Source: a bacterium (lineage in GTDB: Bacteria; Fidelibacterota; Fidelibacteria; Fidelibacterales; Fidelibacteraceae). From it: a stretch of DNA of 64,000 nucleotides. The position numbers were made by a program, and so were the translations under genes. Shown here piece after piece: positions 50,134 to 63,576 of the stretch. The stretch spans positions 2,176,001 through 2,240,000 of the forward strand of contig OY781066.1 of assembly GCA_963676395.1 (NCBI GenBank), in the 5' to 3' direction. The notes under the pieces were generated by a model. The model ran no database searches. It saw only the letters and a program-made list of their open reading frames with translations, and was not told where the DNA came from. Numbering within the stretch: position 1 is the first letter of the stretch; the number at the start of each line of letters is the position of its first letter.

Positions 50134-50790
50134 TTATTTTATTCTTTTCTTCATCTCTTTTATCGTTTTTACAGGATCATCGCTTTTAAACACTACGCTC
50201 CCTGCGACAAACACTTCCACCCCCAGCTTGGATACTTCCTCAATATTCCCAAGATGGATACCGCCATCGATTTGGATAAGGTAGGGGAGTTTGAGTTCTT
50301 GTTTTAGCGTTGCCAGTTCAATAGCTTTGTCGTTGGCGCTGTCGATATATGATTGCCCGCCAAAACCCGGTTCTACAGACATGATCAGCACATAATCGCA
50401 GAGCGGCAGGAATTTCTTGATCGCATCGACGGAAGTGTTGGGCTTGATAACCAATCCTGCTTTTACCCCGTGTTTGCGAATATGCTTGAGTGTTTTCTCG
50501 GGTGTCTCCGAGGCTTCAATGTGGAAGCTCAGCCAGTCCGCACCGGCCTCGATATACCAGTCGATGGTTTCATCCGGATTCGTGATCATTAAATGCACAT
50601 CTAAGGGTAAATTCGTGATCTTGCGTATTTTTGCGATCACAGGAGGTCCAAATGTCAAGTTTGGTACAAAATGGCCATCCATTATATCGCAGTGCACCCA
50701 ATCGGCACCTGCTTTTTCAAGCATGTGGATCTCGGACTCGATGTTCATGAAGTCAGAGGATAGGATAGAGGGAGCGATGAGTTTTTTCAT
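50134..50790 (-). CDS. rpe: Ribulose-phosphate 3-epimerase
   Basis: IAPSIL, HCDIMDGHFVPN, DVHLM, MSVEPGFGGQ, IDGG. Confidence 0.96.
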   Translation of the reverse strand: MKKLIAPSILSSDFMNIESEIHMLEKAGADWVHCDIMDGHFVPNLTFGPPVIAKIRKITNLPLDVHLMITNPDETIDWYIEAGADWLSFHIEASETPEKTLKHIRKHGVKAGLVIKPNTSVDAIKKFLPLCDYVLIMSVEPGFGGQSYIDSANDKAIELATLKQELKLPYLIQIDGGIHLGNIEEVSKLGVEVFVAGSVVFKSDDPVKTIKEMKKRIK

Positions 50791-51278
50791 GAGGGTTCTC
50801 CGTCATCCTGAAATCCGCCGAATCCGTCGGCTGACGGAGAGGGAGGAGAGTTCAGGATCTTAAAAGCATTATTTACGGTAATGTAGGGGCGACTCGCGAG
50901 TCGGCTGTACGCTGTCAATATTATACCTAAAAGTGTAGAAAATGAGGACGTGGCACAATGATGTGTTTTAGTCCCAAATATTGGTTTGATGAATGTAAAG
51001 AGGAATAGCAGATGGAAATACACAATAGCTCTATCCTTTACCGTGTTAACGGTCGTGGAGTGGTTGATCCAAGACTGATCGTATGTGCGTGTTTCCATCA
51101 TAGTTTTCAATGCATTTGTTTCAAATACTGTAGAACTTAATTCTAAAATGCCTCATTTCAAACATAAATAGGAGGAAAGTCGATGAGGTCGATGAAGGTT
51201 GATAAATGCGTTGAATTGCAGAATTATTCAACAGTGGAATCGTTGGGTCGTTCGGACTATGAATACGTTTATTCATAC

Positions 51279-51311
51279 AAAAAAGCCTCAGATATTACAC
51301 TGAGGCCTTTT
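51279..51311 (-). terminator. Terminator (possibly bidirectional)
   Basis: aaaaaa-gcctcag-N8-ctgaggc-ctttt. Confidence 0.75.
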
Positions 51312-51332
51312 ATTATTTGAGTTGCAATTATA

Positions 51333-51812
51333 TTAATAATTATCAGGATTATCTTTATTTAAATATGTGCTTAATTGATAAGAAAAATTCATCATGTGTT
51401 CATTAATTTCATCAATATAAACTTTTTGTTTTGGCACATGTTTATTGTAACCATCTAAAAACATTACATAGTTGTCAAATCTTAGATCAACATCATGATC
51501 TTTGATTGTAACTTTTAAATTAAATCTGGTAGGTGCTTCGGCCCCTAGGTTTACCATTGGGTAACAACTGACTTTGCCATGTACGGAAATTTTACCATTT
51601 TCCTTGTCGGTATAGGCGATTTCAGTACCATAAGAATTTACTAAATTATCACTGATCCATTCAAGAGTTTCTTGATAGATCACCTCTTGATCTTTATGAC
51701 TGACTTTAAATGAGCTGTTGTAGCAGCGATTTTCAGAGTCAACAACCTGGATTATTCCACAACTGAACATAAAAACGGCAACAAGCAGTAGTACAAATAC
51801 ATTTTTCTTCAT
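51333..51812 (-). CDS. Lipoprotein, DUF4468-like
   Basis: Lipobox MFSC; IY..TLEWI...IAYTDKENGKI...F.LKV.IKD pattern. Confidence 0.65.
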   Translation of the reverse strand: MKKNVFVLLLVAVFMFSCGIIQVVDSENRCYNSSFKVSHKDQEVIYQETLEWISDNLVNSYGTEIAYTDKENGKISVHGKVSCYPMVNLGAEAPTRFNLKVTIKDHDVDLRFDNYVMFLDGYNKHVPKQKVYIDEINEHMMNFSYQLSTYLNKDNPDNY

Positions 51813-52040
51813 AGTTATCTCCTTGATTAGTAAAGTAATAAGAACGGCACTAAAATAAAAATATTACGAATATTGTGCAAGATAAAAATTATGAAATAGG
51901 TATATAGGTAGATATAAAAAGGTACTCAATTATATTTAATTTCAATTGTCCGCGGTGTTTTTTGAGTTACTTGCTAAATGTTAGCGGTAATAATTTAGGT
52001 AGATTTTCCGTTTCACTGAGGAAAAGCGGAGAGGAGGGGA

Positions 52041-52282
52041 GACCTAGGATCGGCGATGTGAACATTACAGAAGTGACAATTCTAGGCGCAAACATCCCCT
52101 AATACCATAAAGGTGGCAGTCTGATTCAACCAACATTCTTCTTTATTGGGACAGTGGGCTTCGTCGCAAACGGTATGTAAACGATGGTGGCTTAGGACCG
52201 ATTGAACGCTTCGGCATTCGGTGCCGCCGGACAGCTTGATCTTCAGCCAATCAGGTTTGCGTACTTCCATCATTCTTTTCAA
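52041..52282 (-). pseudogene. lipA: Lipoyl synthase 5' fragment with an in-frame amber stop
   Basis: RKPDWLKIKL, LHTVCDEAHCPNKEECW, TATFMVLGDVCA*NCHFCNV; homology ends near 52043. Confidence 0.88.
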
Positions 52283-52516
52283 TTGTGTCGTTTCAATTAC
52301 AATGTGAAAAGTAATGATTTATTGAGGGGTTTCAAATACAAATCGGCGTAAAAGTAAGGAGTAAGGAGACTTAATTGTTAATTACAGTACATTAATTGAA
52401 TAAAAAATACTTTTGATATTCATATTTAGATTGTAAAATAGGCTATCGAATAAATTATTATGTATATACAGGCGAAAATCTGTAGCTGAAAGAATGTTTT
52501 TGGGATTATGTGTTGA

Positions 52517-52636
52517 ATGCTGACAATCAGAAACTTACATCGCTCATTTGGTGGCAGAAAAGTAATTTCAGGGCTTGATATAGACTTGGAACCAGAAAAA
52601 TCAAATTCAATGGTGAGCGTTGATAGTGAATATTAA
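52517..52636 (+). pseudogene. 5' fragment of a LivG-like ABC ATPase gene
   Basis: MLTIRNLHRSFGGRKVISGLDIDLEPEK, 20/28 identical to the start of ORF 62215; ends before Walker A. Confidence 0.75.
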
Positions 52637-52660
52637 AACGATTAAAATACGTGGTTATAT

Positions 52661-53515
52661 ATGGAAACAATAACTATTACAGATTGGAATGAGTTTAAAA
52701 AATTGGTCTCTGATACCGAAATGACAAGTTGGATTTTCAGGGGACAAGCTATTTCGGATTGGCCAATATTAAGCTCTTTATCAAGATATTTTAATAAATT
52801 TGAAGTGCATACAGATTGTTGGCCTCATCAAGAGGAAAGATTATTAAGAATCTTTAAAAGAAAAGCTCACCATTATTTAGACAATGTTCCTACAGAAAAA
52901 GATACATTCGAGTGGCTTTCTTTGATGCAGCATTTTGGTACTCCTACTCGACTTGTTGATTTCACATTTTCACCATATGTTGCAGCTTTTTTTGCCTTAC
53001 ATAAAACGCAAGAAGATTGTGCGGTTTGGGCACTTTTCCCACCAAAATTTGATGGAGAATCAGAAATATTACTTCAAAATGGTGATAAATTTATTCCTAA
53101 AGATCGGTGGTTAAGAAAAAATGAAAATTATATTGATTATTATCTTAAAGGTGATAAATCATTTTTAATTATGGGCGAACCGGAAAGAATGAATCAAAGA
53201 CTAATTGCCCAAGCAGGCACATTTATTGTCCCAAGTAAAATTGACATACCCCTCGAAAAAATAATTATTGATAATTATCAAAATTCGGATGATGCAATTA
53301 AAAAAATAATTATAAAAAAATCTGTTAGAGATAAAGCTATGAAAGATTTATACAGATCAAATATTACAGAAGCTACCCTGTTTCCTGGAATAGATGGAAT
53401 GGCAAGAGCTTTATCATATGAATTAGAACATCATTGGGCTTATAATCCAAAAACAATGGAAAAGGTTGTAGGCTTTGATAGCCCTCCTTTTGGGTTGCCT
53501 GATTCAATCATATAG
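52661..53515 (+). CDS. FRG domain protein
   Basis: IFRGQ, MQHFGTPTRLVDFT.SPYVAAFFA, NQRLIAQAGTF, LFPGIDG. Confidence 0.92.
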   Translation: METITITDWNEFKKLVSDTEMTSWIFRGQAISDWPILSSLSRYFNKFEVHTDCWPHQEERLLRIFKRKAHHYLDNVPTEKDTFEWLSLMQHFGTPTRLVDFTFSPYVAAFFALHKTQEDCAVWALFPPKFDGESEILLQNGDKFIPKDRWLRKNENYIDYYLKGDKSFLIMGEPERMNQRLIAQAGTFIVPSKIDIPLEKIIIDNYQNSDDAIKKIIIKKSVRDKAMKDLYRSNITEATLFPGIDGMARALSYELEHHWAYNPKTMEKVVGFDSPPFGLPDSII

Positions 53516-53615
53516 CTAAGTAATTTGCTATCAATTATGGGTGTTTTTATAATTAGAACTAAATTTGGAATAAATATATTTTAGGAAAATATAATAAATA
53601 GGTATATAATTAATC

Positions 53616-54563
53616 ATGTCTATTATACTCGAGATAAATAATCTGGAAGTATCTTTTAAAAATAAAGATACAACAGTCTATGCCGTAAATAATGTATCAT
53701 TTTCTGTTGTTAGAAAAGAAGTACTCGGCATAGTAGGAGAATCAGGTTGTGGGAAATCTGTCACTTGTAAAACAATTTTAGGACTAAACAATCACCCGGA
53801 ACAAAGTGGAGAGGTTTTATTCCATGGGAAAAATATTTTGGAAGTTTCTGAAAAGGAGTTAAATAATATTCGTGGAAAAGAAATTTCCATGATTTTTCAA
53901 AATTCCGGGAATGCTCTGAATCCGATGGTAAGCATTGGGAAACAAATGGTTGAAGTGATACGCTTACATCAGGGACTAGACAAAATCGATGCTCAAAAAG
54001 AAGCGATACGGTTTTTAAAAGAAATGGATGTGCCTGATGCTGAAGAAAAAATGAACGAGTATCCGCATCAACAAAGCGGAGGAATAAACCAACGGATCGT
54101 TATTGCGATTGCATTAAGTTGTCATCCTGGATTATTGATTGCAGATGAACCAACAGCATCCTTGGATGTCACTATTCGAAACCAAATACTCCAGATTTTT
54201 AAAGATCTCAAAAAGAAACTAAGTATTATCATTGTTTCTCATGATTTGGCAGTTATTAAAGAAATCGCGGATAGAATCATTGTTATGTACAAGGGAATGA
54301 TCATGGAAGAAGGGAAAACGGAAGATATGTTCAAGAATCCATTACATCCCTACACAAAGGCTCTTTTAGCTTCCATTCCTTTTTTGAACAGAGATAAGAT
54401 CATTCTAAAGGGGGAGCCCCCTTCATCTCAAATTAAACCACAAGGTTGTCCTTTTGCAACAAGATGTCCTGATGTGATAGGTGAAATTTGTCATACAAAA
54501 AGGCCCAGTGAAACCATACTTGCAAATAAAGTTTATTGTCATCTTTTTAACAATAAACAATAA
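53616..54563 (+). CDS. Opp/Dpp-type ABC transporter ATPase (OppD-like)
   Basis: GESGCGKS, YPHQQSGG, IADEPT, HPYT, C-terminal CPFATRC..C..CH. Confidence 0.9.
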   Translation: MSIILEINNLEVSFKNKDTTVYAVNNVSFSVVRKEVLGIVGESGCGKSVTCKTILGLNNHPEQSGEVLFHGKNILEVSEKELNNIRGKEISMIFQNSGNALNPMVSIGKQMVEVIRLHQGLDKIDAQKEAIRFLKEMDVPDAEEKMNEYPHQQSGGINQRIVIAIALSCHPGLLIADEPTASLDVTIRNQILQIFKDLKKKLSIIIVSHDLAVIKEIADRIIVMYKGMIMEEGKTEDMFKNPLHPYTKALLASIPFLNRDKIILKGEPPSSQIKPQGCPFATRCPDVIGEICHTKRPSETILANKVYCHLFNNKQ

Positions 54564-54579
54564 AGAAGCGAGGAGAATT

Positions 54580-56169
54580 ATGAAAACTGTAAATATTAAA
54601 CATTGGATTATACTTATTCTGGGATTAGCTCTATTATTTTCTTGCAGTAAAAACAACGAGCAGGAAGATGAATTGATTCTAAAAGATGTCTGGAAACTAG
54701 AACAGGCACAGATAAATTCCTTCGATCCCCTGGATGCTTATCATGCTTATCATATCCAATTGGTAAAACAATTATTTAATACGCTAACGAATCTAGATAA
54801 TACTGGAAAGATCATTTCATCTTTGGCAACTTCATGGGAAACCGATAATGGGAAAGACTGGATTTTTCATTTAAGAGATGATGTATGGTTTATAAATGAT
54901 TCCTGCTTTTCAAAAAAAGAAGATCGAAAATTCAATGCAAAAGATGTCAAATATACTTTTGAAAGACTTTTAGATCCTTCTTCAAGTTCCCTCGGTATAT
55001 CCTATTTTACTAATATTGCGGGTGTGAAAGAATACAGGGATGGTTCTTCCGCATCAATTAAGGGAATTAATCCCGTTGATAAGAATACAATTTCCTTTAA
55101 CTTAGTTCAAACGGATTATAATTTTCCAAATTTACTATCATTGCCATATTGCAGTATTGTAAAAAAAACGGCGATAGAACGAACGGACAGTAAACAGCAC
55201 CCTGTTGGAACAGGTCCTTTTATATTGGAGAAATATATTTCCAATCAATCTGTATCATTAATAAAAAATCCTGATTACTGGGAAAAATCCGGTAAAACCT
55301 CTTTGCCAATTGTTGATAAAGTAGAAATTACTTTAACGACAGATGACAACTACTCGTTTTTATTGTTTAAAAATAAAAAAACCGATTTTCTTGAATTGAA
55401 TCTTCCTTTGATCAAGCAACTTGAAAACAGCACCTTTTCATTTGATTATCAGAAAAATGTGCTGGAATCGGCTCAATTGAATTTTTACCTATTTAATTTG
55501 GATAAAATCCAGGATCCGACAATCAGAAAAGGAATTAGTTATACTATTGATCGGGGAAAAATGCAGGCATTGCTGGGAGATAATGGTACAATTACTTCAT
55601 CATTATACCCGAAAATATTTAGCAATATTTCTCAGCCACAACAAATACTCGCATATGACTTAATAAAAGCAAAGGAAATGCTTACTCAACCTATGCATAT
55701 AAAGCTTGTGTCATTTGATGATATGCTGTCCCGAAGTCTTGCCAATCAAATCAGGGAAGATTTGAAACCTTTTTCCATTGATGTGGAAATTGAAGCCGTT
55801 CCATTTGCTGTTTTGGTTGATCGTCTGACTTCAGGCAATTATGATATGATACAACTATTTTGGGGAATGTTGTATGCGGATGTCAATCATTTTCTTACAC
55901 CGTTCAAAACGTCTTCATTCCCGCCGGTAGGAAATAATTTCAATAAGTATTCCAACGATCAGTTTGATAATACTATCAATAAAGCGCCTCAGATGCCCAA
56001 AGAACAACAAGCAGAACTTTATAAAAAAGCCGAAGCAATAATTTTGGACGATATGCCATTTATATTAACTTATTATAAAAATATGATCAGTTTATCGGAT
56101 AAAAAATATGTTCTTCCTATAAATCCTTTGCTTTATAAGTATTATAAAGATGCTGTCCCTTTTGAATAA
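54580..56169 (+). CDS. Family 5 ABC substrate-binding lipoprotein
   Basis: ATG 54580 after AGGAG; lipobox LFSC; SFDP, LATSW, FHLRDDV.F, A.DVKYTFER, PVGTGPF, KNPDYW. Confidence 0.9.
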   Translation: MKTVNIKHWIILILGLALLFSCSKNNEQEDELILKDVWKLEQAQINSFDPLDAYHAYHIQLVKQLFNTLTNLDNTGKIISSLATSWETDNGKDWIFHLRDDVWFINDSCFSKKEDRKFNAKDVKYTFERLLDPSSSSLGISYFTNIAGVKEYRDGSSASIKGINPVDKNTISFNLVQTDYNFPNLLSLPYCSIVKKTAIERTDSKQHPVGTGPFILEKYISNQSVSLIKNPDYWEKSGKTSLPIVDKVEITLTTDDNYSFLLFKNKKTDFLELNLPLIKQLENSTFSFDYQKNVLESAQLNFYLFNLDKIQDPTIRKGISYTIDRGKMQALLGDNGTITSSLYPKIFSNISQPQQILAYDLIKAKEMLTQPMHIKLVSFDDMLSRSLANQIREDLKPFSIDVEIEAVPFAVLVDRLTSGNYDMIQLFWGMLYADVNHFLTPFKTSSFPPVGNNFNKYSNDQFDNTINKAPQMPKEQQAELYKKAEAIILDDMPFILTYYKNMISLSDKKYVLPINPLLYKYYKDAVPFE

Positions 56170-57029
56170 TGAAACGTTATAATCTAATATACCGCATTCT
56201 TTTCCTTTTATTGACGGTCTTGGTGATTCCTTTGTTACCAATCATTATTATCTTTTTAGGAACAAATTCTCCCGAATATGTGATCAAGGGAACCTTGAAT
56301 ATGAGTGTTTCGCCGGGAGTATCTCCTTGGAATCTGTATTTGGAAGCATTGAAAAACCTTCTTACATTCAATTTGGGGACATCCATTTCTTCCGGCCAAT
56401 CAGTTATAAATGAAATAGGTGCGGGATTGGGTCAATCTTTTAAGATTATTATACCGGCGCTGGTATTGAGCTACCTTCTGGGAACATTGATTGGTATTTT
56501 GAGAAAAGGTAAAAGCCCAATTACAGGAAAGCGGTATGATTTTATCTTTTACATTCCGATGATCGTTTTCTCCTATTTCTTTCTGTTCTTATCCGACAAA
56601 TTGGGAATTGATTTTACGTCCGGTATAAGATATGTGTATGCGGTTATTATCTTATCGATTTATCCGGTTTTTATCGTTTATAAATCATTTATTTCCCGAT
56701 ACCATACGATCATTGAAAGTGATTTTTACCAATTTCATTTGTCCACGGGTGTAGGTAAATCTAATATTTTTAAAAATTTTCTTGTAAAATATTTCGGAAT
56801 CGAATACCTTTCATTCTTAGAAAATCTTGTTATATATATGTTCGGGTTTATTTATTTTGTTGAATCCCCCTTTGCTATTAATGGTATGGGCTATAAATTT
56901 GTTTTGGGCATTCAACGATTTGATTACCCGCTGATCATTGGCTTCTGTATTGTGAGTATTATTTTTTTTTCTGTGATCAATATTATTATTGGATATATTC
57001 AATCAAAAATCGATCCTAGAAGGACATGA
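56169..57029 (+). CDS. ABC transporter permease (OppB-like, divergent)
   Basis: FNLGTS, VESPFAINGMG, RFDYPLI; multiple TM segments. Confidence 0.8.
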   Translation: MKRYNLIYRILFLLLTVLVIPLLPIIIIFLGTNSPEYVIKGTLNMSVSPGVSPWNLYLEALKNLLTFNLGTSISSGQSVINEIGAGLGQSFKIIIPALVLSYLLGTLIGILRKGKSPITGKRYDFIFYIPMIVFSYFFLFLSDKLGIDFTSGIRYVYAVIILSIYPVFIVYKSFISRYHTIIESDFYQFHLSTGVGKSNIFKNFLVKYFGIEYLSFLENLVIYMFGFIYFVESPFAINGMGYKFVLGIQRFDYPLIIGFCIVSIIFFSVINIIIGYIQSKIDPRRT

Positions 57030-57802
57030 AAATTAAAAAACAGACATGGCTTTTATCCTTTCTATTGATAATCATCATTATTATTACTTGCCATAATATT
57101 TTTCTTTCACCTTCTAAACAAACAACGTTATTAATATCTCCCAACTGGAATCATTGGTTTGGGACGGATATTAACGGAAATGATGTTTTTATAAGGACGT
57201 TGGGAGCATTTGGGTATGAACTGCTTAATTTGGTAAGTGTTCTTTTCCTTGTATGGATTTTGGGACTATTATTGGGAAGTTTGGTATCCCAGATCGGAGG
57301 TCAGGCTTTTAAAGCTTTTTTCTTGAATCTTGTTCATTACATGGCCACATTACCCGTATTACTGATTGCATTATTTTTGCTGATACTTTTTGGAGGTGGC
57401 TTTTTTAATGCTGTTATTATTCTTTCAATTACGATTATTCCGACACAAATACTTTTTGTGTACAATCAACTGGAAACAGCTCAAAATGAAAGCTTTGTTG
57501 TTGCTAAAAAGAGCTATGGATTATCTAATACCGCAATTTATAAATCTCATTTAATTCCTTTTATTTTAAAAAAATATAATAGTTATACTTTATCCCGCAT
57601 CCCAGAAATCATTATGATGAATCTCGCTTTAAATTTTTTAGGATTAGGGATTCAAGAACCTCATCCAAGTTTAGGACGGATGCTATTTGATGGTTTGTCT
57701 TTTATGTTTTCTGCGTGGTGGTTGTGGATATCTCCCGTTATATTAATATTTTTATTATTCCTGATTGTAATTAGTATTAATCATGGTAAAGCTTATGATT
57801 GA
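57026..57802 (+). CDS. ABC transporter permease (OppC-like)
   Basis: HWFGTDING.DV, H.IP, LNFLGLG..P.PSLGRML. Confidence 0.85.
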   Translation: MKIKKQTWLLSFLLIIIIIITCHNIFLSPSKQTTLLISPNWNHWFGTDINGNDVFIRTLGAFGYELLNLVSVLFLVWILGLLLGSLVSQIGGQAFKAFFLNLVHYMATLPVLLIALFLLILFGGGFFNAVIILSITIIPTQILFVYNQLETAQNESFVVAKKSYGLSNTAIYKSHLIPFILKKYNSYTLSRIPEIIMMNLALNFLGLGIQEPHPSLGRMLFDGLSFMFSAWWLWISPVILIFLLFLIVISINHGKAYD

Positions 57803-58781
57803 CATTACATCTATTCAAAATAAATTGTTAAATGATATTAAATCCTCCTATGGAAAAAATAAATTAATACCATTTACAGGTGCAGGTTTTTCTAAAAATA
57901 TTATAGGTTATCCAAGCTGGAAAGAATTTATCGAAATAATATCTGATGATATCTCAGGAAACATAGAACATATTAAAGAGATGTTTGATAATAATTATCT
58001 TCAATCTATAGAATATTATATGATGAGTTTTCTTATAAATGAAAATCTTGCGGACGACCCAAAAAGTAAAGATCTTGGAAAAGAACAACTTTCAAAAAAA
58101 TTGAAAGAGATTTTTTGTAAAGAATTTGACCAGTCAACATGGGAAGCACAAATAGCTTTAATCAGTTTAAAGAATTTTGATTTAATATATACTACAAATT
58201 GGGATAATACCTTGGAAATTACTTGCAGGGAAATACTTGGTGAAGATAGATATAGGGTGTACTATAGAGCTTCACAATTAGAAAATATTAAAGAGGACTA
58301 TTGCAACATATTAGAACATAAAAAAGAAAATAGAAAAAAACTGATAATAAAATTACATGGTGATATTAAAGATTATGATTCAATAGTAGCATCAGAAGAT
58401 GCTTATTATAGTAGAATGAATTCATTTAATGCTTTCGATATTGTATTTCAAAATGATATACTTTTGAATGATTTTTTATTTATGGGGTTTAGTTTTGACG
58501 ATGCCAATATTAATTATTTACTTCAACAAATTCGATCTATGAAGAAAGAAATTAAACCTTCCAATAACAAAGTATATCTTATATCAATTAAAAAACCAGA
58601 TATCGCATATTATAAACTATATGAGAAATATAAAAACGTAGATGTATATTATTTGTTTAATAATATGCTAGAATATGAAATGTATGATAAATCTTGTGAT
58701 GAAGAAAAGAATAGAATAATAAAAAATAAAACAATAGAATTCTTCGATTATATTTCAGATGGAGAATTAAAAGAAAAGTAA
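57783..58781 (+). CDS. SIR2-like (SIR2_2-type) protein
   Basis: LIPFTGAGFS, PSW, YTTNWD, IIKLHGD, FLFMGFSFDD.NI. Alternative start 57795. Confidence 0.9.
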   Translation: MVKLMIDITSIQNKLLNDIKSSYGKNKLIPFTGAGFSKNIIGYPSWKEFIEIISDDISGNIEHIKEMFDNNYLQSIEYYMMSFLINENLADDPKSKDLGKEQLSKKLKEIFCKEFDQSTWEAQIALISLKNFDLIYTTNWDNTLEITCREILGEDRYRVYYRASQLENIKEDYCNILEHKKENRKKLIIKLHGDIKDYDSIVASEDAYYSRMNSFNAFDIVFQNDILLNDFLFMGFSFDDANINYLLQQIRSMKKEIKPSNNKVYLISIKKPDIAYYKLYEKYKNVDVYYLFNNMLEYEMYDKSCDEEKNRIIKNKTIEFFDYISDGELKEK

Positions 58782-58805
58782 ACTAATGTATTAAGAGGTA
58801 TTCAG

Positions 58806-59861
58806 ATGGCTATAGGATTTTCAGGTAGTAATGGAGGTATTACAAATATATACAATCAATATCTTAATAAAATATGCACATCAAAACAATCGCTCGAAGT
58901 CTCATATTTTATTAACAATCGTTGTAACTTAAATTGTAAACACTGTTATGTCGGATATTATGATTCCTCAAAAAATCTTCAGATAGATGAATGGAGTAAA
59001 ACATTTGACAGCCTCATAAAAATGGGTGCTAAAACATTTGGAAATGTTGGGAAAGAGCCTTTACTGGATTGGGATAGTACAAAAATGTTGCTTCAATATT
59101 TTAAAGCCAAGAGAGATGAAGACAAAACTATACGTTTTGGGTTTGTCAGTAATGGATTGCTTCTAAATGAAGAAATTATTCAAGAATTGACCCAAATAGA
59201 GCCTGATTATATAGATATCAGTCTTGATGGCGACCAACATAGTCATGATTCTATCCGGGGAGAGGGTACTTATCAAAAACTTCTAACCAATCTTACTCTA
59301 TTGGCAGAAACGAACTTGGCAAAAAAGGTATTTATCAGTTTTACATTGAATAATATCAATAAACATTCATTGCCGGAAGTTATTAAAACCATTTATCAAA
59401 TCGGCTTGAAAAATTTGTTGATTTCACCTTATGTCACATTGAATAAAAAAGATCTGCTGTATCTATCAGATGTCGAAATTGCCGATATTATTTCCGATAT
59501 TCTGCATGAGAATACAATATCATTTAAAAATTATGAACATTTGAATATCTACGTAAAAAGTGATTATTCTTCTTCAAAGGGAGTCATGGAGAAATTTAAA
59601 GACAGAGGTATTATAAATAAAAATGATTTATTAGTAGATAATTATGGTGTTGTTTTTAATAAATATCAATTTGGTACAAATCATATTTATTTCAATTATT
59701 TACCTTATGACAATACCTTCACACAAGCCATTAGGATCAGTCATGACGGTTATGTAAGCGGTTGTCTTGAAATGTTCCATGAAGATTATCCTGAACGGGC
59801 TATTGGGAATATCAGGGAAATGGATATTTCAAAAATATTGGCAAATTATAATAAAAATTAA
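58806..59861 (+). CDS. Radical SAM protein with reduced twitch/SPASM-like tail
   Basis: CNLNCKHCY, GKEPLL, SNG, ISLDG..HDSIRG.GTY, ISHDGYVSGC...IGNI. Confidence 0.9.
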   Translation: MAIGFSGSNGGITNIYNQYLNKICTSKQSLEVSYFINNRCNLNCKHCYVGYYDSSKNLQIDEWSKTFDSLIKMGAKTFGNVGKEPLLDWDSTKMLLQYFKAKRDEDKTIRFGFVSNGLLLNEEIIQELTQIEPDYIDISLDGDQHSHDSIRGEGTYQKLLTNLTLLAETNLAKKVFISFTLNNINKHSLPEVIKTIYQIGLKNLLISPYVTLNKKDLLYLSDVEIADIISDILHENTISFKNYEHLNIYVKSDYSSSKGVMEKFKDRGIINKNDLLVDNYGVVFNKYQFGTNHIYFNYLPYDNTFTQAIRISHDGYVSGCLEMFHEDYPERAIGNIREMDISKILANYNKN

Positions 59862-60256
59862 TATTTGTCTTGCATTGTTATCTTATACAGATCATTAGTA
59901 AAACTCTTCAATAAATTTTAATGTACTCAACTTTATGGAGTACATAAGATTAACATTTCTCAATGGAACAATTATATTTCTGCTCGTTTAAATTGACTAA
60001 ACAATGAGTTGTATATGAATCCCAAAGTATCAGCCTTCTCCTAACGATAAACGATAAACGATAAATGATGAACACCTGCCAGCCGAAGTCCGTTAACTAA
60101 CGGATGAAGGCATAAATAGTGACGCGTTACGCGTGACGAGTAACAGGCTCCCAACCTTTCTACTATTTCCTTGCAAATCAGGCAATTAAGCCGCAAATTA
60201 GTTCAAGCAAATAAATAAGTTTAATCATTGGATCAAGGCATATTGTCTATGTGTAA

Positions 60257-61588
60257 TTAATCCATATTCAACGCTTCAACCTCTTCCACTGTCTTGATCT
60301 TGTGATGCTTCATGCGACGGTTCTTGAACTTACGGAAGATGTATTCGATGATCAGGGCAGCGGAGAAGGTAAGCAGACTGGCGATAAAGGCGCTTTTCTG
60401 CGTATTCCACTGGTAAAGCATCAATGCGACGAACACGGCGATTAGGATGATTAGATTGATGATGATCAGCCATTTTTTTCCACCCACTTCCTTTTGAAGT
60501 TTCAAATGCGAGATCAGAACGAAAATATAGATGACCGTATACACGGTACTGGTGATCGAGGCAATTGCTTCCAGATTGAAAAAGAGCGCGAAGATCAGGC
60601 CGAGTCCTGCGGTAATATACAATCCTTCAGTGGATTTGAACCAGACCTTGCGTTCAAAGATCTCCGGCAATTCACCGTCTTTGGCTAGTGAATAGGCGAT
60701 ATTCGCGCCGCCGAAAAGGGTCGCGTTAAGAGCCGATGATATGGAGAACAAAGCACCGATCGTGATCAGGATGAACCCGAAGTGCCCCAGAAAAGGCTTG
60801 GCCGCCATTGCCAGGGCATTTTCCTGGTCTTTCATGATCTCGGATATCGGGAGATTCCCGATCGTGACGACCGAAATGAGGATGTAGAAAACCATCACAA
60901 GAAAAATGCTGATATAGGTCGCACGGGGTACGTTCTTTTGAGGATCTTTCAAATTCTCCGAGACATTAGTGATCAGTCCGAATCCCATATAGGACAGGAA
61001 AAAAATGATCGAAGCGTTCAATAATCCATGTACGTTCGATGAATGAAAATCCGGCTTTGCCATCGTCATGTCAATGGTCAGGAAGCCGCCCAGAATAAAG
61101 ACCAGTAGAATGGTCAATTTAACCAGCACAATATAGAATTCCGCTTTCCCCACGGCTTTACTGCCGAAAAAGTTCAAGCCCGTAAAAATCAGGATCACGG
61201 CCACTTCGACCAATCCCAGGGATAAAGGTGTGGACTCGATATGAGCGAAGGGGAGGAAATAACCGGCAAATCCTTTGACGAAGAGAGAAATGGAGACCAC
61301 GTAGCTCAACCACATCAGAAAACTCAACGCACCGGTGACCAGTGAATCGCCCATGCCTTTCAGGATAAAGGCGACAGGTCCGGCGTTTGAAATGATCCGT
61401 TTGCCTAAGATGGCATAGGAATACGCGACAGCCAAAGCGTACAAACCGGATAAAATGAACGCAAAGGGGAGATCTTTTCCTGCAATGCCTGCACCAAGGC
61501 CGAAAATAGAGAAAATACTGGCACCGATCATGGTTCCGACAGCAATGGAGATGACCTCCGGCAGGCTTAATTTCTTGTTGTTTTCCAT
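60257..61588 (-). CDS. APC family amino acid permease
   Basis: VGTMIGASIF, SYMGFG..ENLKDP.KNVPRA, LAKDGELP. Start ATG 61588 after AGGAG. Confidence 0.9.
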   Translation of the reverse strand: MENNKKLSLPEVISIAVGTMIGASIFSIFGLGAGIAGKDLPFAFILSGLYALAVAYSYAILGKRIISNAGPVAFILKGMGDSLVTGALSFLMWLSYVVSISLFVKGFAGYFLPFAHIESTPLSLGLVEVAVILIFTGLNFFGSKAVGKAEFYIVLVKLTILLVFILGGFLTIDMTMAKPDFHSSNVHGLLNASIIFFLSYMGFGLITNVSENLKDPQKNVPRATYISIFLVMVFYILISVVTIGNLPISEIMKDQENALAMAAKPFLGHFGFILITIGALFSISSALNATLFGGANIAYSLAKDGELPEIFERKVWFKSTEGLYITAGLGLIFALFFNLEAIASITSTVYTVIYIFVLISHLKLQKEVGGKKWLIIINLIILIAVFVALMLYQWNTQKSAFIASLLTFSAALIIEYIFRKFKNRRMKHHKIKTVEEVEALNMD

Positions 61589-62214
61589 TGAATGGCTCCT
61601 GTTCTTTGGACAGTTAACGTGTGAAATCAAAATTGTTTCATTAATTTTACTTGATTATAATAAAACATGCAAGCTGTGATATAACATAAAATAGATCATA
61701 ATATAAATCCGCGATCGCGTGGCTTATTCCGTTACATTGTGCAAAAGTTCTCCAATCTATGATCGGCAAGCGACAAGCACAGGGTTGTTGTTTTTGAAAA
61801 TTTAAATGTAGCCGAGAGATTATTCAAGAATGATTTAATTACTAGAGACCACATAGCTAATTAAATGACACGATACCTATAGAATATAAAGAACTGTTTA
61901 ACCTTATACATACAACTGTCCGGAAAATGAGGGAATGTCAGGTCTAACATATTTATCTGTGTAAGTTATGGGTCTATTCAATATCATTATGTGAATTAAG
62001 CTCGGATTATGATGATTTTGTTACTGCAAATTAATCTATGGCTATGATTTACGTATAACAGGTCACGACTTTTGATGAATTTGATCTTCCGATATACTTT
62101 TTTTAAAAAGTTCTTTCAATAAAGGAATATCCTTTATAAAATATGATATAAAATAATAAAATGAATATCAGGCGATTAGCCGACTCTTGAATTTCACGCG
62201 CAGATGGGAAGTAG

Positions 62215-62670
62215 ATGCTACGTATCAGAAACCTATATCATTCGTTTGGAGACAGGAAAATAATCAACGGACTTGACCTTGATCTGGAACCTCAAAAGAT
62301 ATATTGTCTAATGGGAGCAAATGGATCTGGTAAAACGACATTATTCAATATTATTACCGGATTTCTTAAAGCAAAAAGTGGCGATATAACATATAAAGAT
62401 CAATCCATATTTAATAAATCTCCCGTTAAAATTAATCATTTAGGTATAAGTCGAACTTTTCAAGATCTCCGTATGATCCGGGAATTAACGGTAAGAGAAA
62501 ATGTTATGCTTGCCTTTAAGGGTAATAAAGGAGAGAATATATTTCAAGCTATGTTACCCCCTCCATTATTAAAACACCAGAATGATGAGTTTAATTCAAG
62601 AGCAGAAGAAATTATTGAACGTGTATTTCTTAGCGATGTTATTGATCAAAACCCTGATGTATTCCGATAA
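62215..62670 (+). pseudogene. Truncated LivG-like ABC ATPase
   Basis: GANGSGKTTLFNIITG, GISRTFQDLR, LTVRENV; ends before the signature and Walker B motifs. Confidence 0.8.
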
Positions 62671-63576
62671 TAAATACGGGGGAGAGACCTATAAGCTCGT
62701 ATTTGAGCCTCAGGATACGCTGTATCGCAGGCATACACATGGTATTTTTACTTATGACAAGAATGCCGAACTGCGCGAAGAGCAAGGTTATTTGAACGAA
62801 AAGACCATTGCGAAAACATCAATTCTTTGGTTTCGCAATTACTTTGATGAAAAGGGTGATACGCTAAAGGCGATCAAGAAGACCGATCCGGACTCCGATT
62901 TTGGCTCTCGTGTAGAATACCAGAAACATTATTACAAAGATGGCGAGGTTGTAGAGGTCGAAGAGATCTATACCGAGGCCCATAACAAAGAAGTGGGACT
63001 CGTCAAACATAGCGTTATTGCGAATCCCGAGAAAGACGGAACCATTGTCACTTATCAATACAATAACGAAAAGATCGAAAAAGATGCCATTCTTAGTCAT
63101 GAGATCCATTATAATCATTACATCGAACCCGTTAAAGAGGTCATGTATCCGACATCACGGGTCAAGAATTACCTAAATCTCCAAATATTGATCATCGACC
63201 ATCACCCGGACGGCGCTCAGAGCATCATTGCTCATTACAAAGAGAACGACGCCCCCCACTCCGGAAGTCAAACTCCACGAGATCAAAGATGCTCCCAATG
63301 GCGACCAGCTGGTCGAATCCACATCTATTTCGATGGCGAACTCTACTACCGCATCAACTTAAGCGGTTACATCGCCCAGTATGCCACCCCCGACTACCGC
63401 TTTAAAACCTACCTCACCGCCTTCAAACGCGACAGCAGCATCGACCACGTCGAAAGACAGACGACAAAAACAAACACGATTATACCCTCAAGGTCACGGA
63501 ATTTTACCAAGGCCAGCAGTACCGTGATCTGTACTACAGAGACGGTAAGGTAGAGAAGACGGAATATTATGAGTAG
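62650..63576 (+). pseudogene. 5'-truncated, frameshifted hypothetical gene
   Basis: Composition change near 62650; apparent frameshifts near 63252, 63317 and 63461; alternative-frame C-terminus KVTEFYQGQQYRDLYYRDGKVEKTEYYE* ends at TAG 63576. Confidence 0.55.

Follow-up and report, generated by a model that had tools for sequence, protein, structure and literature searches.

What does a complete peptide-class importer do in one operon with a SIR2 protein and a radical S-adenosylmethionine (SAM) enzyme, and do such genes belong together at all? The question is raised by a run of seven co-oriented genes at 52661-59861 of the window, by which we mean the whole 64,000-nucleotide stretch of DNA analyzed here, from a bacterium of the Fidelibacteraceae (contig OY781066.1, positions 2,176,001 to 2,240,000). 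A first-pass annotation had proposed that the seven genes form an undescribed conflict or signalling system. All seven open reading frames (ORFs) that it listed are present on the + strand:

52661-53515, + strand: FRG-domain gene (Pfam FRG, E 5e-25)
53616-54563, + strand: OppD-like ATP-binding cassette (ABC) ATPase, first gene of the cassette (Pfam ABC_tran 2e-28, oligo_HPY 3e-18)
54583-56169, + strand: family-5 (Opp/Dpp/Nik class) substrate-binding lipoprotein (SBP), with a signal peptide and lipobox Cys (Pfam SBP_bac_5, E 6e-58)
56169-57029, + strand: permease B (PermB; Pfam BPD_transp_1)
57026-57802, + strand: permease C (PermC; Pfam BPD_transp_1)
57783-58781, + strand: stand-alone SIR2_2 protein (Pfam SIR2_2, E 7e-20)
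58806-59861, + strand: radical SAM enzyme (Pfam Radical_SAM 4e-20, partial SPASM 8e-7)
58806-58841, + strand: Gly/Ser-rich N-terminal tail of the radical SAM enzyme, its first 12 codons, near-invariant across the family

The junctions are also as first described. The SBP and PermB genes have 1 nt in common, PermB and PermC overlap by 4 nt, the SIR2 gene starts 20 nt inside the 3′ end of PermC, and the radical SAM gene starts 24 nt after SIR2. The G+C content is 0.25-0.36 over 52-60 kb and 0.41-0.45 at 47-51 kb and 60-62 kb, in agreement with the remark that the block is more AT-rich than the core genes. The remaining window is ordinary housekeeping DNA, in which sorting domains of the type IX secretion system are present.

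Related loci were collected from two sides. On the radical SAM side, 29 relatives were aligned and one genome per species was scanned, which gave 33 loci. On the transporter side, binding proteins were aligned and metagenome contigs were scanned, which gave 25 loci. The content of these 58 related loci was read by tblastn with the seven window proteins and from a crude ORF map. PermC, SIR2 and the radical SAM gene stand together in 12 of the 33 genome loci, mostly with the complete ATPase-SBP-PermB-PermC set and with the order kept; one of the 12 (L027) is rearranged. These loci belong to Pseudomonadota, Planctomycetota, Thermodesulfobacteriota, Myxococcota, Rhodothermota and Firestonebacteria, and cassette loci span at least seven bacterial phyla when the window's own is counted. 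The 12 are all the loci of named bacterial lineages outside Patescibacteria that have enough upstream sequence. Another 12 genome loci are archaeal (DPANN); their neighbor is a divergent, Lrp/AsnC-like tandem gene, in most cases accompanied by small ORFs upstream. A TrmB-like neighbor occurs in four, two from Patescibacteria and two from unclassified 'bacterium' entries (L010 and L011); in the latter two, upstream sequence is ample and the TrmB-like gene stands in place of the cassette. One locus (L005) has a fragment of a KAP NTPase, and four were too short or truncated for judgement.

From the transporter side, 10 of the 25 metagenome loci reach at least 4.5 kb beyond the SBP gene. The radical SAM gene was found in all ten and SIR2 in nine of them, and two shorter contigs stop within a SIR2 gene. 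The co-occurrence test, which had been set beforehand, was thus strongly positive from the radical SAM side (12/33) and from the transporter side (10/10). Altogether the same six-gene order, often with overlapping stop and start codons, was found in more than 20 loci from two query genes independently. Chance is far from sufficient to explain such an order in many unrelated genomes. A search of 40 relatives, 21 of them of the same genus, did not detect the radical SAM gene, and the gene trees of the radical SAM enzyme and the binding protein cut across taxonomy. These results show that 53616-59861 is one discrete, conserved, horizontally acquired operon that moves between bacterial phyla. We found no description of this transporter-SIR2-radical SAM unit in the PADLOC models or the literature searched, as the first-pass annotation had supposed.

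The FRG gene, which that annotation had counted as a member, gave no tblastn match in the 58 related loci. Therefore, it is outside the conserved cassette and is a separate, unrelated neighbor. It is a full-length match to the PADLOC candidate single-gene family PDC-S15 (E 8e-53, residues 2-257).

Individual cassettes vary in their minor parts. No conserved small peptide gene upstream of the ATPase was common to 22 loci. In two of the 22, the ATPase is immediately preceded by a small, co-oriented gene for an Xre-type helix-turn-helix protein (L016:4369-4590 and L043:1524-1712), and the two proteins have a conserved stretch in common. A gene of about 200 aa and no firm family is located between the permease genes in four loci (L007:5576-6202, L009:7417-8064, L013:3653-4240 and L042:4432-5079); it is absent from the window. 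At L036:7845-8786, an IS1595-type transposase lies on the opposite strand between SBP and PermB, and PermB is shortened to 230 aa. In the Brocadia cassette at L004:9030-9987, SIR2 is present as two ORFs (156 and 118 aa), and it is intact in the 87%-identical cassette of L038. The split is either a frameshift or an assembly error.

The SIR2 protein of the window has 332 aa and consists of a bare SIR2_2 domain, in which Pfam finds no other domain. Its GAGFS, TTNWD and KxHG motifs are intact. G33, N139, D141 and H192 are invariant in all 12 cassette SIR2 proteins, at a mean column identity of just 28%. The PADLOC profiles of ThsA (2e-22) and LmuA (3e-18) matched the protein, and a sequence search of the PDB gave KomC of Kongming (1.7e-18) and ThsA as its best solved relatives. 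The AlphaFold2 model (predicted local distance difference test, pLDDT, 89.6) was searched with Foldseek. The top folds were KomC, ThsA and DSR2, KomC being the first (TM-score 0.67/0.82), and no housekeeping sirtuin was among the listed top matches. Judged by sequence and model, the cassette SIR2 is of the type that acts as a nicotinamide adenine dinucleotide (NAD) hydrolase (NADase) effector. A predicted complex of SIR2 with the radical SAM enzyme scored 0.00, a 'no answer' that is evidence for neither side.

The cassette differs from the known systems to which this protein is related. In Thoeris, ThsA consists of SIR2 and a SLOG (or other) signal-binding domain, and ThsB is its TIR-domain partner. 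The ThsA profile match of the cassette SIR2, in contrast, covers only positions 6-222 of 478, the SLOG domain is absent, and no TIR match was found among the seven genes of the window. Unlike DSR2, the cassette SIR2 does not carry the large DSR sensor domain. As for Kongming, the cassette SIR2 is KomC-like, but the KomA deaminase and KomB NTP pyrophosphatase domains of that system (PMC13454610; 10.1101/2024.12.20.629578) have no counterpart in the cassette. The likeness to the three systems lies in the catalytic Asn, Asp and His of SIR2_2, which are intact in the cassette too, in a modular effector slot, and in the defence-island contexts of the loci. The partners differ from those of all three systems: here SIR2 stands with a radical SAM enzyme and with an ABC importer that depends on a binding protein.

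The position of SIR2 in the cassette can be taken by other genes. In the complete locus L040 (6776-9090), PermC and the radical SAM gene flank a 396-aa gene of no known family and a KAP NTPase, which occupy precisely the place of SIR2. This NTPase resembles PDC-S20 and QatA. A second case is found at L005:119-856, where a KAP fragment, 45% identical, is situated at the contig start just upstream of the radical SAM gene. The two KAP variants occupy separate places on the radical SAM tree. For the 396-aa partner, the best ESM Atlas score was 0.81 (PIN_12 clusters), which is within the range of shuffled proteins and is a lead only.

Comparison of closely related cassettes showed where the sequence changes. 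Between two Brocadia genomes, DNA identity is 93% from the ATPase to PermB and 85% in PermC; the SIR2 DNA is not alignable, identity within the radical SAM gene is 66%, and from the 3′ end of that gene into the downstream genes it is 94%. Similar mosaics were seen in protein identity: between L038 and L013 the transporter proteins are 81-97% identical, SIR2 27% and the radical SAM enzyme 55%, and between L036 and L037 the values are 85-94%, 37% and 45%, respectively. On the gene trees, the terminal branches have a median length of 1.27 in SIR2, against 0.35 in the radical SAM enzyme and 0.28 in the binding protein. The clade L013/L036/L014 is common to the SIR2 and radical SAM trees. These results show that the transporter is the slowly evolving part, that SIR2 and the radical SAM gene are the fast-evolving part, and that the effector slot is exchangeable.

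The transporter has the parts of the Opp/Dpp/Nik (PepT) importers, namely SBP_bac_5, two BPD_transp_1 permeases and an oligo_HPY ATPase. However, the cassette importer makes do with one ATPase gene instead of two, and its genes lie on mobile islands in a fixed operon with those of SIR2 or KAP and the radical SAM enzyme. The ATPase scores 312 bits against NCBIfam OppD, below the 575 cut-off, and the transporter as a whole falls far short of the cut-offs of all named NCBIfam subfamilies, those of the Opp/Dpp/Nik equivalogs included. ATPase relatives in the cassette loci are 42-71% identical, the SBP alignment has a mean column identity of 57%, and the order of PermB and PermC is conserved. The ligands of the best solved SBP relatives are peptides, glutathione/heme, Sap substrates, murein tripeptide or nickel chelates. 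In Gram-positive bacteria, signalling peptides are taken up through Opp.

The radical SAM family is small and uncharacterized: of 1.84 billion representative proteins searched, 102 reach E<=1e-30. The CxxxCxxC motif (C40/C44/C47) is invariant in 29/29 aligned relatives, and beyond this SAM cluster C320 is the only further invariant Cys. Of the SPASM profile, positions 6-45 of 67 are matched, and all NCBIfam matches are far below their cut-offs. With C320 as the sole conserved Cys beyond the SAM cluster, the enzyme is unlikely to hold a full auxiliary Fe-S cluster. The AlphaFold2 model (pLDDT 89.4) has SkfB, CteB and SuiB as its nearest folds, and SPASM/twitch peptide maturases rank above viperins by sequence as well as by fold. 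The match to the pVip hidden Markov model (E 3e-14) goes no further than the generic radical SAM core. Thus, the analogy with viperins drawn by the first-pass annotation is weak.

With the SPASM/twitch maturases SkfB, CteB and SuiB, its best sequence and fold matches, the cassette enzyme has in common the CxxxCxxC motif and a conserved peptide, here the tail, that is genetically tied to the enzyme. It differs in that the Cys ligands of an auxiliary cluster and an N-terminal domain of the size of a RiPP recognition element (RiPP, ribosomally synthesized and post-translationally modified peptide) are absent. Furthermore, the bacterial cassettes have no exporter or protease, and a separate small precursor gene was not found in them; the candidate substrate would be the N-terminus of the enzyme itself or small (71-aa) proteins.

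In the tail, M1, A2, G4 and G7 are invariant and S6, S8 and G11 near-invariant in the alignment of 29 relatives. Among cassette-linked enzymes whose 5′ end is complete, all 23 carry it. Its pLDDT is low, that is, it is flexible in the model. The tail motif occurs in a single copy in the window's genome, and no separate small tail gene was found in that genome or in the cassette loci. In the archaea, the motif also heads one or two small proteins (60-72 aa) directly upstream of the enzyme, and their stop codons overlap the next start. Such loci are:

L015:8027-9501: archaeal (DPANN) tail-protein locus
L017:9579-11059: archaeal (DPANN) tail-protein locus
L019-L021, L023, L030, L031 and L034: further DPANN tail-protein loci

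In archaeal loci with such small tail proteins, the tail on the enzyme itself is frequently degenerate. Archaeal and bacterial cassettes are alike in their radical SAM family and N-terminal tail motif. The archaeal ones carry small tail proteins and Lrp/AsnC-like neighbors without transporter or SIR2; the bacterial versions, in contrast, fuse the tail to the enzyme and add an importer and an effector. The conserved tail, on the enzyme or on the small archaeal proteins, may have the role of a precursor peptide. The archaeal enzyme of L017 has two tandem tail copies.

Two other assignments were considered for these parts. The tail was compared with a glycyl-radical site, owing to a likeness to RVxG[YF]; this was dropped, as the L040 enzyme is without the Gly-aromatic pair and keeps the Ser/Gly core. 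The archaeal Lrp-like neighbor was considered as a siroheme decarboxylase. It aligns full-length to the NirD-like protein 4ch7 (E 1.6e-5), but Lrp/AsnC regulators match far better (E 6e-20), and the assignment is kept as a minor rival only.

A radical SAM enzyme is also a core part of prokaryotic viperins, Ophion and HXS. Two radical SAM enzymes of HXS are reported to mature a periplasmic HxS-repeat protein effector (PMC13128918), and Ophion consists of a radical SAM enzyme, PHP and PRTase (10.1101/2025.09.30.679545). The cassette has no HxS-repeat effector, PHP or PRTase, and its importer and SIR2 are without counterpart in those systems.

To describe the surroundings of the cassettes, 21 distinct cassette loci were compared with PADLOC. 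The PADLOC models name no system for the cassette itself. A PADLOC-listed gene lies within about 3-4 genes of the cassette in 10 of the 21 loci; this is a raw count, uncorrected for background. The neighbors are:

L037, 1823-5522: complete Lamassu (LmuA/C/B)
L016, 11284-16275: type III restriction-modification with an Xre gene
L044, 5-2162: TIR protein and a gene like those associated with prokaryotic Argonautes
L039: GmrSD-like gene
L003: RdrB-like deaminase and PDC-S09
L014: PDC-S01
L038: PDC-S70
L009 and L047: methyltransferases
Window: FRG gene (PDC-S15)

In L037, L016 and L044, the cassette directly adjoins a known defence system that is complete or nearly so. Integrases, insertion sequence elements and toxin-antitoxin genes are frequent near the cassettes.

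What, then, might the operon do? We propose that it is an import-linked, NAD-depleting conflict module, serving in defence or abortive growth, and we put the chance that this is correct at about even. The dedicated Opp/Dpp-class importer would carry a peptide-like substrate in from the periplasm. Once inside, this substrate would be processed by the radical SAM enzyme, which resembles RiPP maturases, or the enzyme would process its own N-terminal tail in response to it. The outcome would control SIR2, a putative NAD+-hydrolysing effector that halts the cell, and in some cassettes the KAP-family NTPase and its 396-aa partner would fill the effector slot instead. The transporter would be the input, and SIR2 with the radical SAM enzyme the exchangeable part. 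This interpretation gains support from the NADase-type SIR2, the replacement by KAP, the hypervariability of SIR2 and the radical SAM gene, and the frequent defence neighbors. Of the conflict system first envisaged, an undescribed conserved unit with these features is retained; the FRG gene and the viperin analogy are not.

Several results weigh against the conflict interpretation. To our knowledge, no described defence system uses a binding-protein-dependent importer, and none was found in PADLOC or the literature searched. Therefore, the central importer step is without precedent. The cassette has no recognizable phage sensor. No PADLOC-listed neighbor was present in 11 of the 21 cassette loci, and some cassettes lie between housekeeping genes. 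No family member was found among viral contigs, where the 52 loci recovered are at best 30% identical and are therefore assigned to radical SAM genes of a generic kind, or among plasmids (E<=1e-20). Moreover, the radical SAM family also occurs without transporter or SIR2, in Patescibacteria with TrmB-like genes and in DPANN archaea, where its setting is tandem Lrp/AsnC-like genes and small tail proteins. Because of this occurrence, the radical SAM chemistry is self-contained and need not serve immunity. Finally, on the gene trees the SIR2 of the window is nearest the L039 type and its radical SAM enzyme is nearest the L003/L004 type. SIR2 and the radical SAM gene are therefore not always inherited or exchanged together.

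A bolder form of the conflict interpretation is import-coupled immunity, which we regard as doubtful. In it, the binding protein and the ABC importer would bring in a cue of danger or kin from outside the cell, the radical SAM enzyme would read or convert it, and the SIR2 NADase or KAP NTPase would shut the cell down. The cue could possibly be a peptide from lysed neighbors or a damaged envelope, or a radical-SAM-modified tail. If so, immunity would be intercellular and gated by uptake, and the radical SAM enzyme would have its substrate attached to it as a tail.

If the more general conflict interpretation is correct, the cassette would be the first modular NADase system with a binding-protein-dependent importer as its input, and the decision to shut down would be gated by something from outside the cell. 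The orphan tail-bearing radical SAM family, hitherto known mainly from DPANN archaea, gains a bacterial context with testable partners, and the exchange of SIR2 for a KAP NTPase together with the hypervariable SIR2/radical SAM segment marks the input and output parts. Either outcome would be informative, since it would be a new defence logic or a new peptide-processing pathway with a NADase-type sirtuin. At 6.2 kb the cassette is compact, and it is present in Pseudomonadota, so that it should be tractable to express. The importer-SIR2-radical SAM cassette is undescribed in the full-text literature searched, with subscription journals and supplementary tables outside the scope of that search; an earlier mention may exist in a large comparative-genomics catalogue.

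The rival explanations, in order of likelihood, are a salvage cassette, a self-peptide loop, a tetrapyrrole or metal-chelate system, and chance. The first would be a mobile nutrient or cofactor salvage cassette, in which an unusual peptide- or chelate-like compound is imported and then converted by the radical SAM enzyme and by SIR2 acting as deacylase or ADP-ribosyltransferase. Opine and metallophore uptake islands are the model for it. Importers with a family-5 binding protein are characteristic of catabolic and metallophore islands, and the nearest named relatives of the transporter are the Opp, Dpp, Sap, Nik and Cnt families. In metabolite-scavenging DPANN archaea and Patescibacteria, the radical SAM family stands alone beside ligand-type regulators, and several cassettes are located among housekeeping genes. 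However, the SIR2 belongs to the SIR2_2/NADase-effector class, and its nearest structures are all anti-phage NADases, with no housekeeping sirtuin among the listed top matches. Replacement by a KAP NTPase is unexpected for a metabolic enzyme, as is a SIR2 at 27-37% identity beside transporters at 81-97%, and there is no conserved riboswitch or metabolic partner gene. An Rfam scan of 50500-62500 (E<=0.1) found no riboswitch and no other RNA family, and in eight cassette loci scanned at gathering score only tRNAs were detected. We consider salvage unlikely.

The flexible, near-invariant tail leads to a second rival, a RiPP-type self-peptide loop for kin or quorum sensing. Here the enzyme would modify its own tail, the tail peptide would be released and re-imported, and SIR2 or KAP would be the receptor-effector. 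The translational coupling of archaeal tail proteins to the enzyme, the peptide maturases SkfB, CteB and SuiB as nearest folds, and the peptide-binding relatives of the importer are in agreement with such a loop. In contrast, the tail has no signal peptide, and the cassette encodes neither a protease nor an exporter for it. Importers are missing from the versions in archaea and Patescibacteria, and neither the window's genome nor the cassette loci contain a small tail gene. We consider the loop improbable.

Third, a heme-like or nickel-chelate compound might be imported and modified by a NirJ/AhbD-like radical SAM enzyme. NCBIfam NirJ, AhbC and AhbD do match the enzyme (E 1e-21 to 3e-14), the relatives of the binding protein include HbpA, SapA and NikA, and the archaeal neighbor shows the NirD-like alignment described above. 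But the NirJ/AhbC/AhbD matches are far below the family cut-offs, the archaeal neighbor fits Lrp/AsnC regulators much better, and the fold is closer to peptide maturases. SIR2, KAP and the tail would all be left unexplained, and we regard a tetrapyrrole or metal-chelate system as very unlikely. Chance juxtaposition of unrelated genes on an AT-rich island describes the FRG gene, which is truly an unrelated neighbor, but for the six-gene core it is refuted by the same six genes in the same order in more than 20 loci of at least seven phyla, recovered with two independent query genes.

The margins of the island in the window were also analyzed. Synteny with same-genus genomes runs through rpe and stops at a broken lipoyl synthase gene; in the same-genus genome G001, lipoyl synthase is full-length and adjoins rpe, and no synteny was found past lipA. 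The pseudogene scars noted by the first-pass annotation are present on the upstream side:

52082-52282, - strand: lipoyl synthase pseudogene fragment, N-terminal 65-66 residues (LIAS_N 1e-6)
52517-52636, + strand: 5′ fragment of an ABC ATPase gene, paralogous (about 77% DNA identity) to the start of the gene at 62215

After rpe, the relatives hold the 3′ two-thirds of lipoyl synthase, and the window has instead about 1.3 kb of AT-rich DNA (50790-52082), within which a DUF4468 lipoprotein gene is located at 51333-51812 on the - strand. On the downstream side, 62215-63553 contains a 151-aa ABC ATPase ORF overlapped by a 323-aa ORF in another frame that has no Pfam match, and the ABC ATPase gene may be broken there. 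The first 28 codons of the ABC ATPase ORF at 62215 resemble the upstream fragment at 52517-52636.

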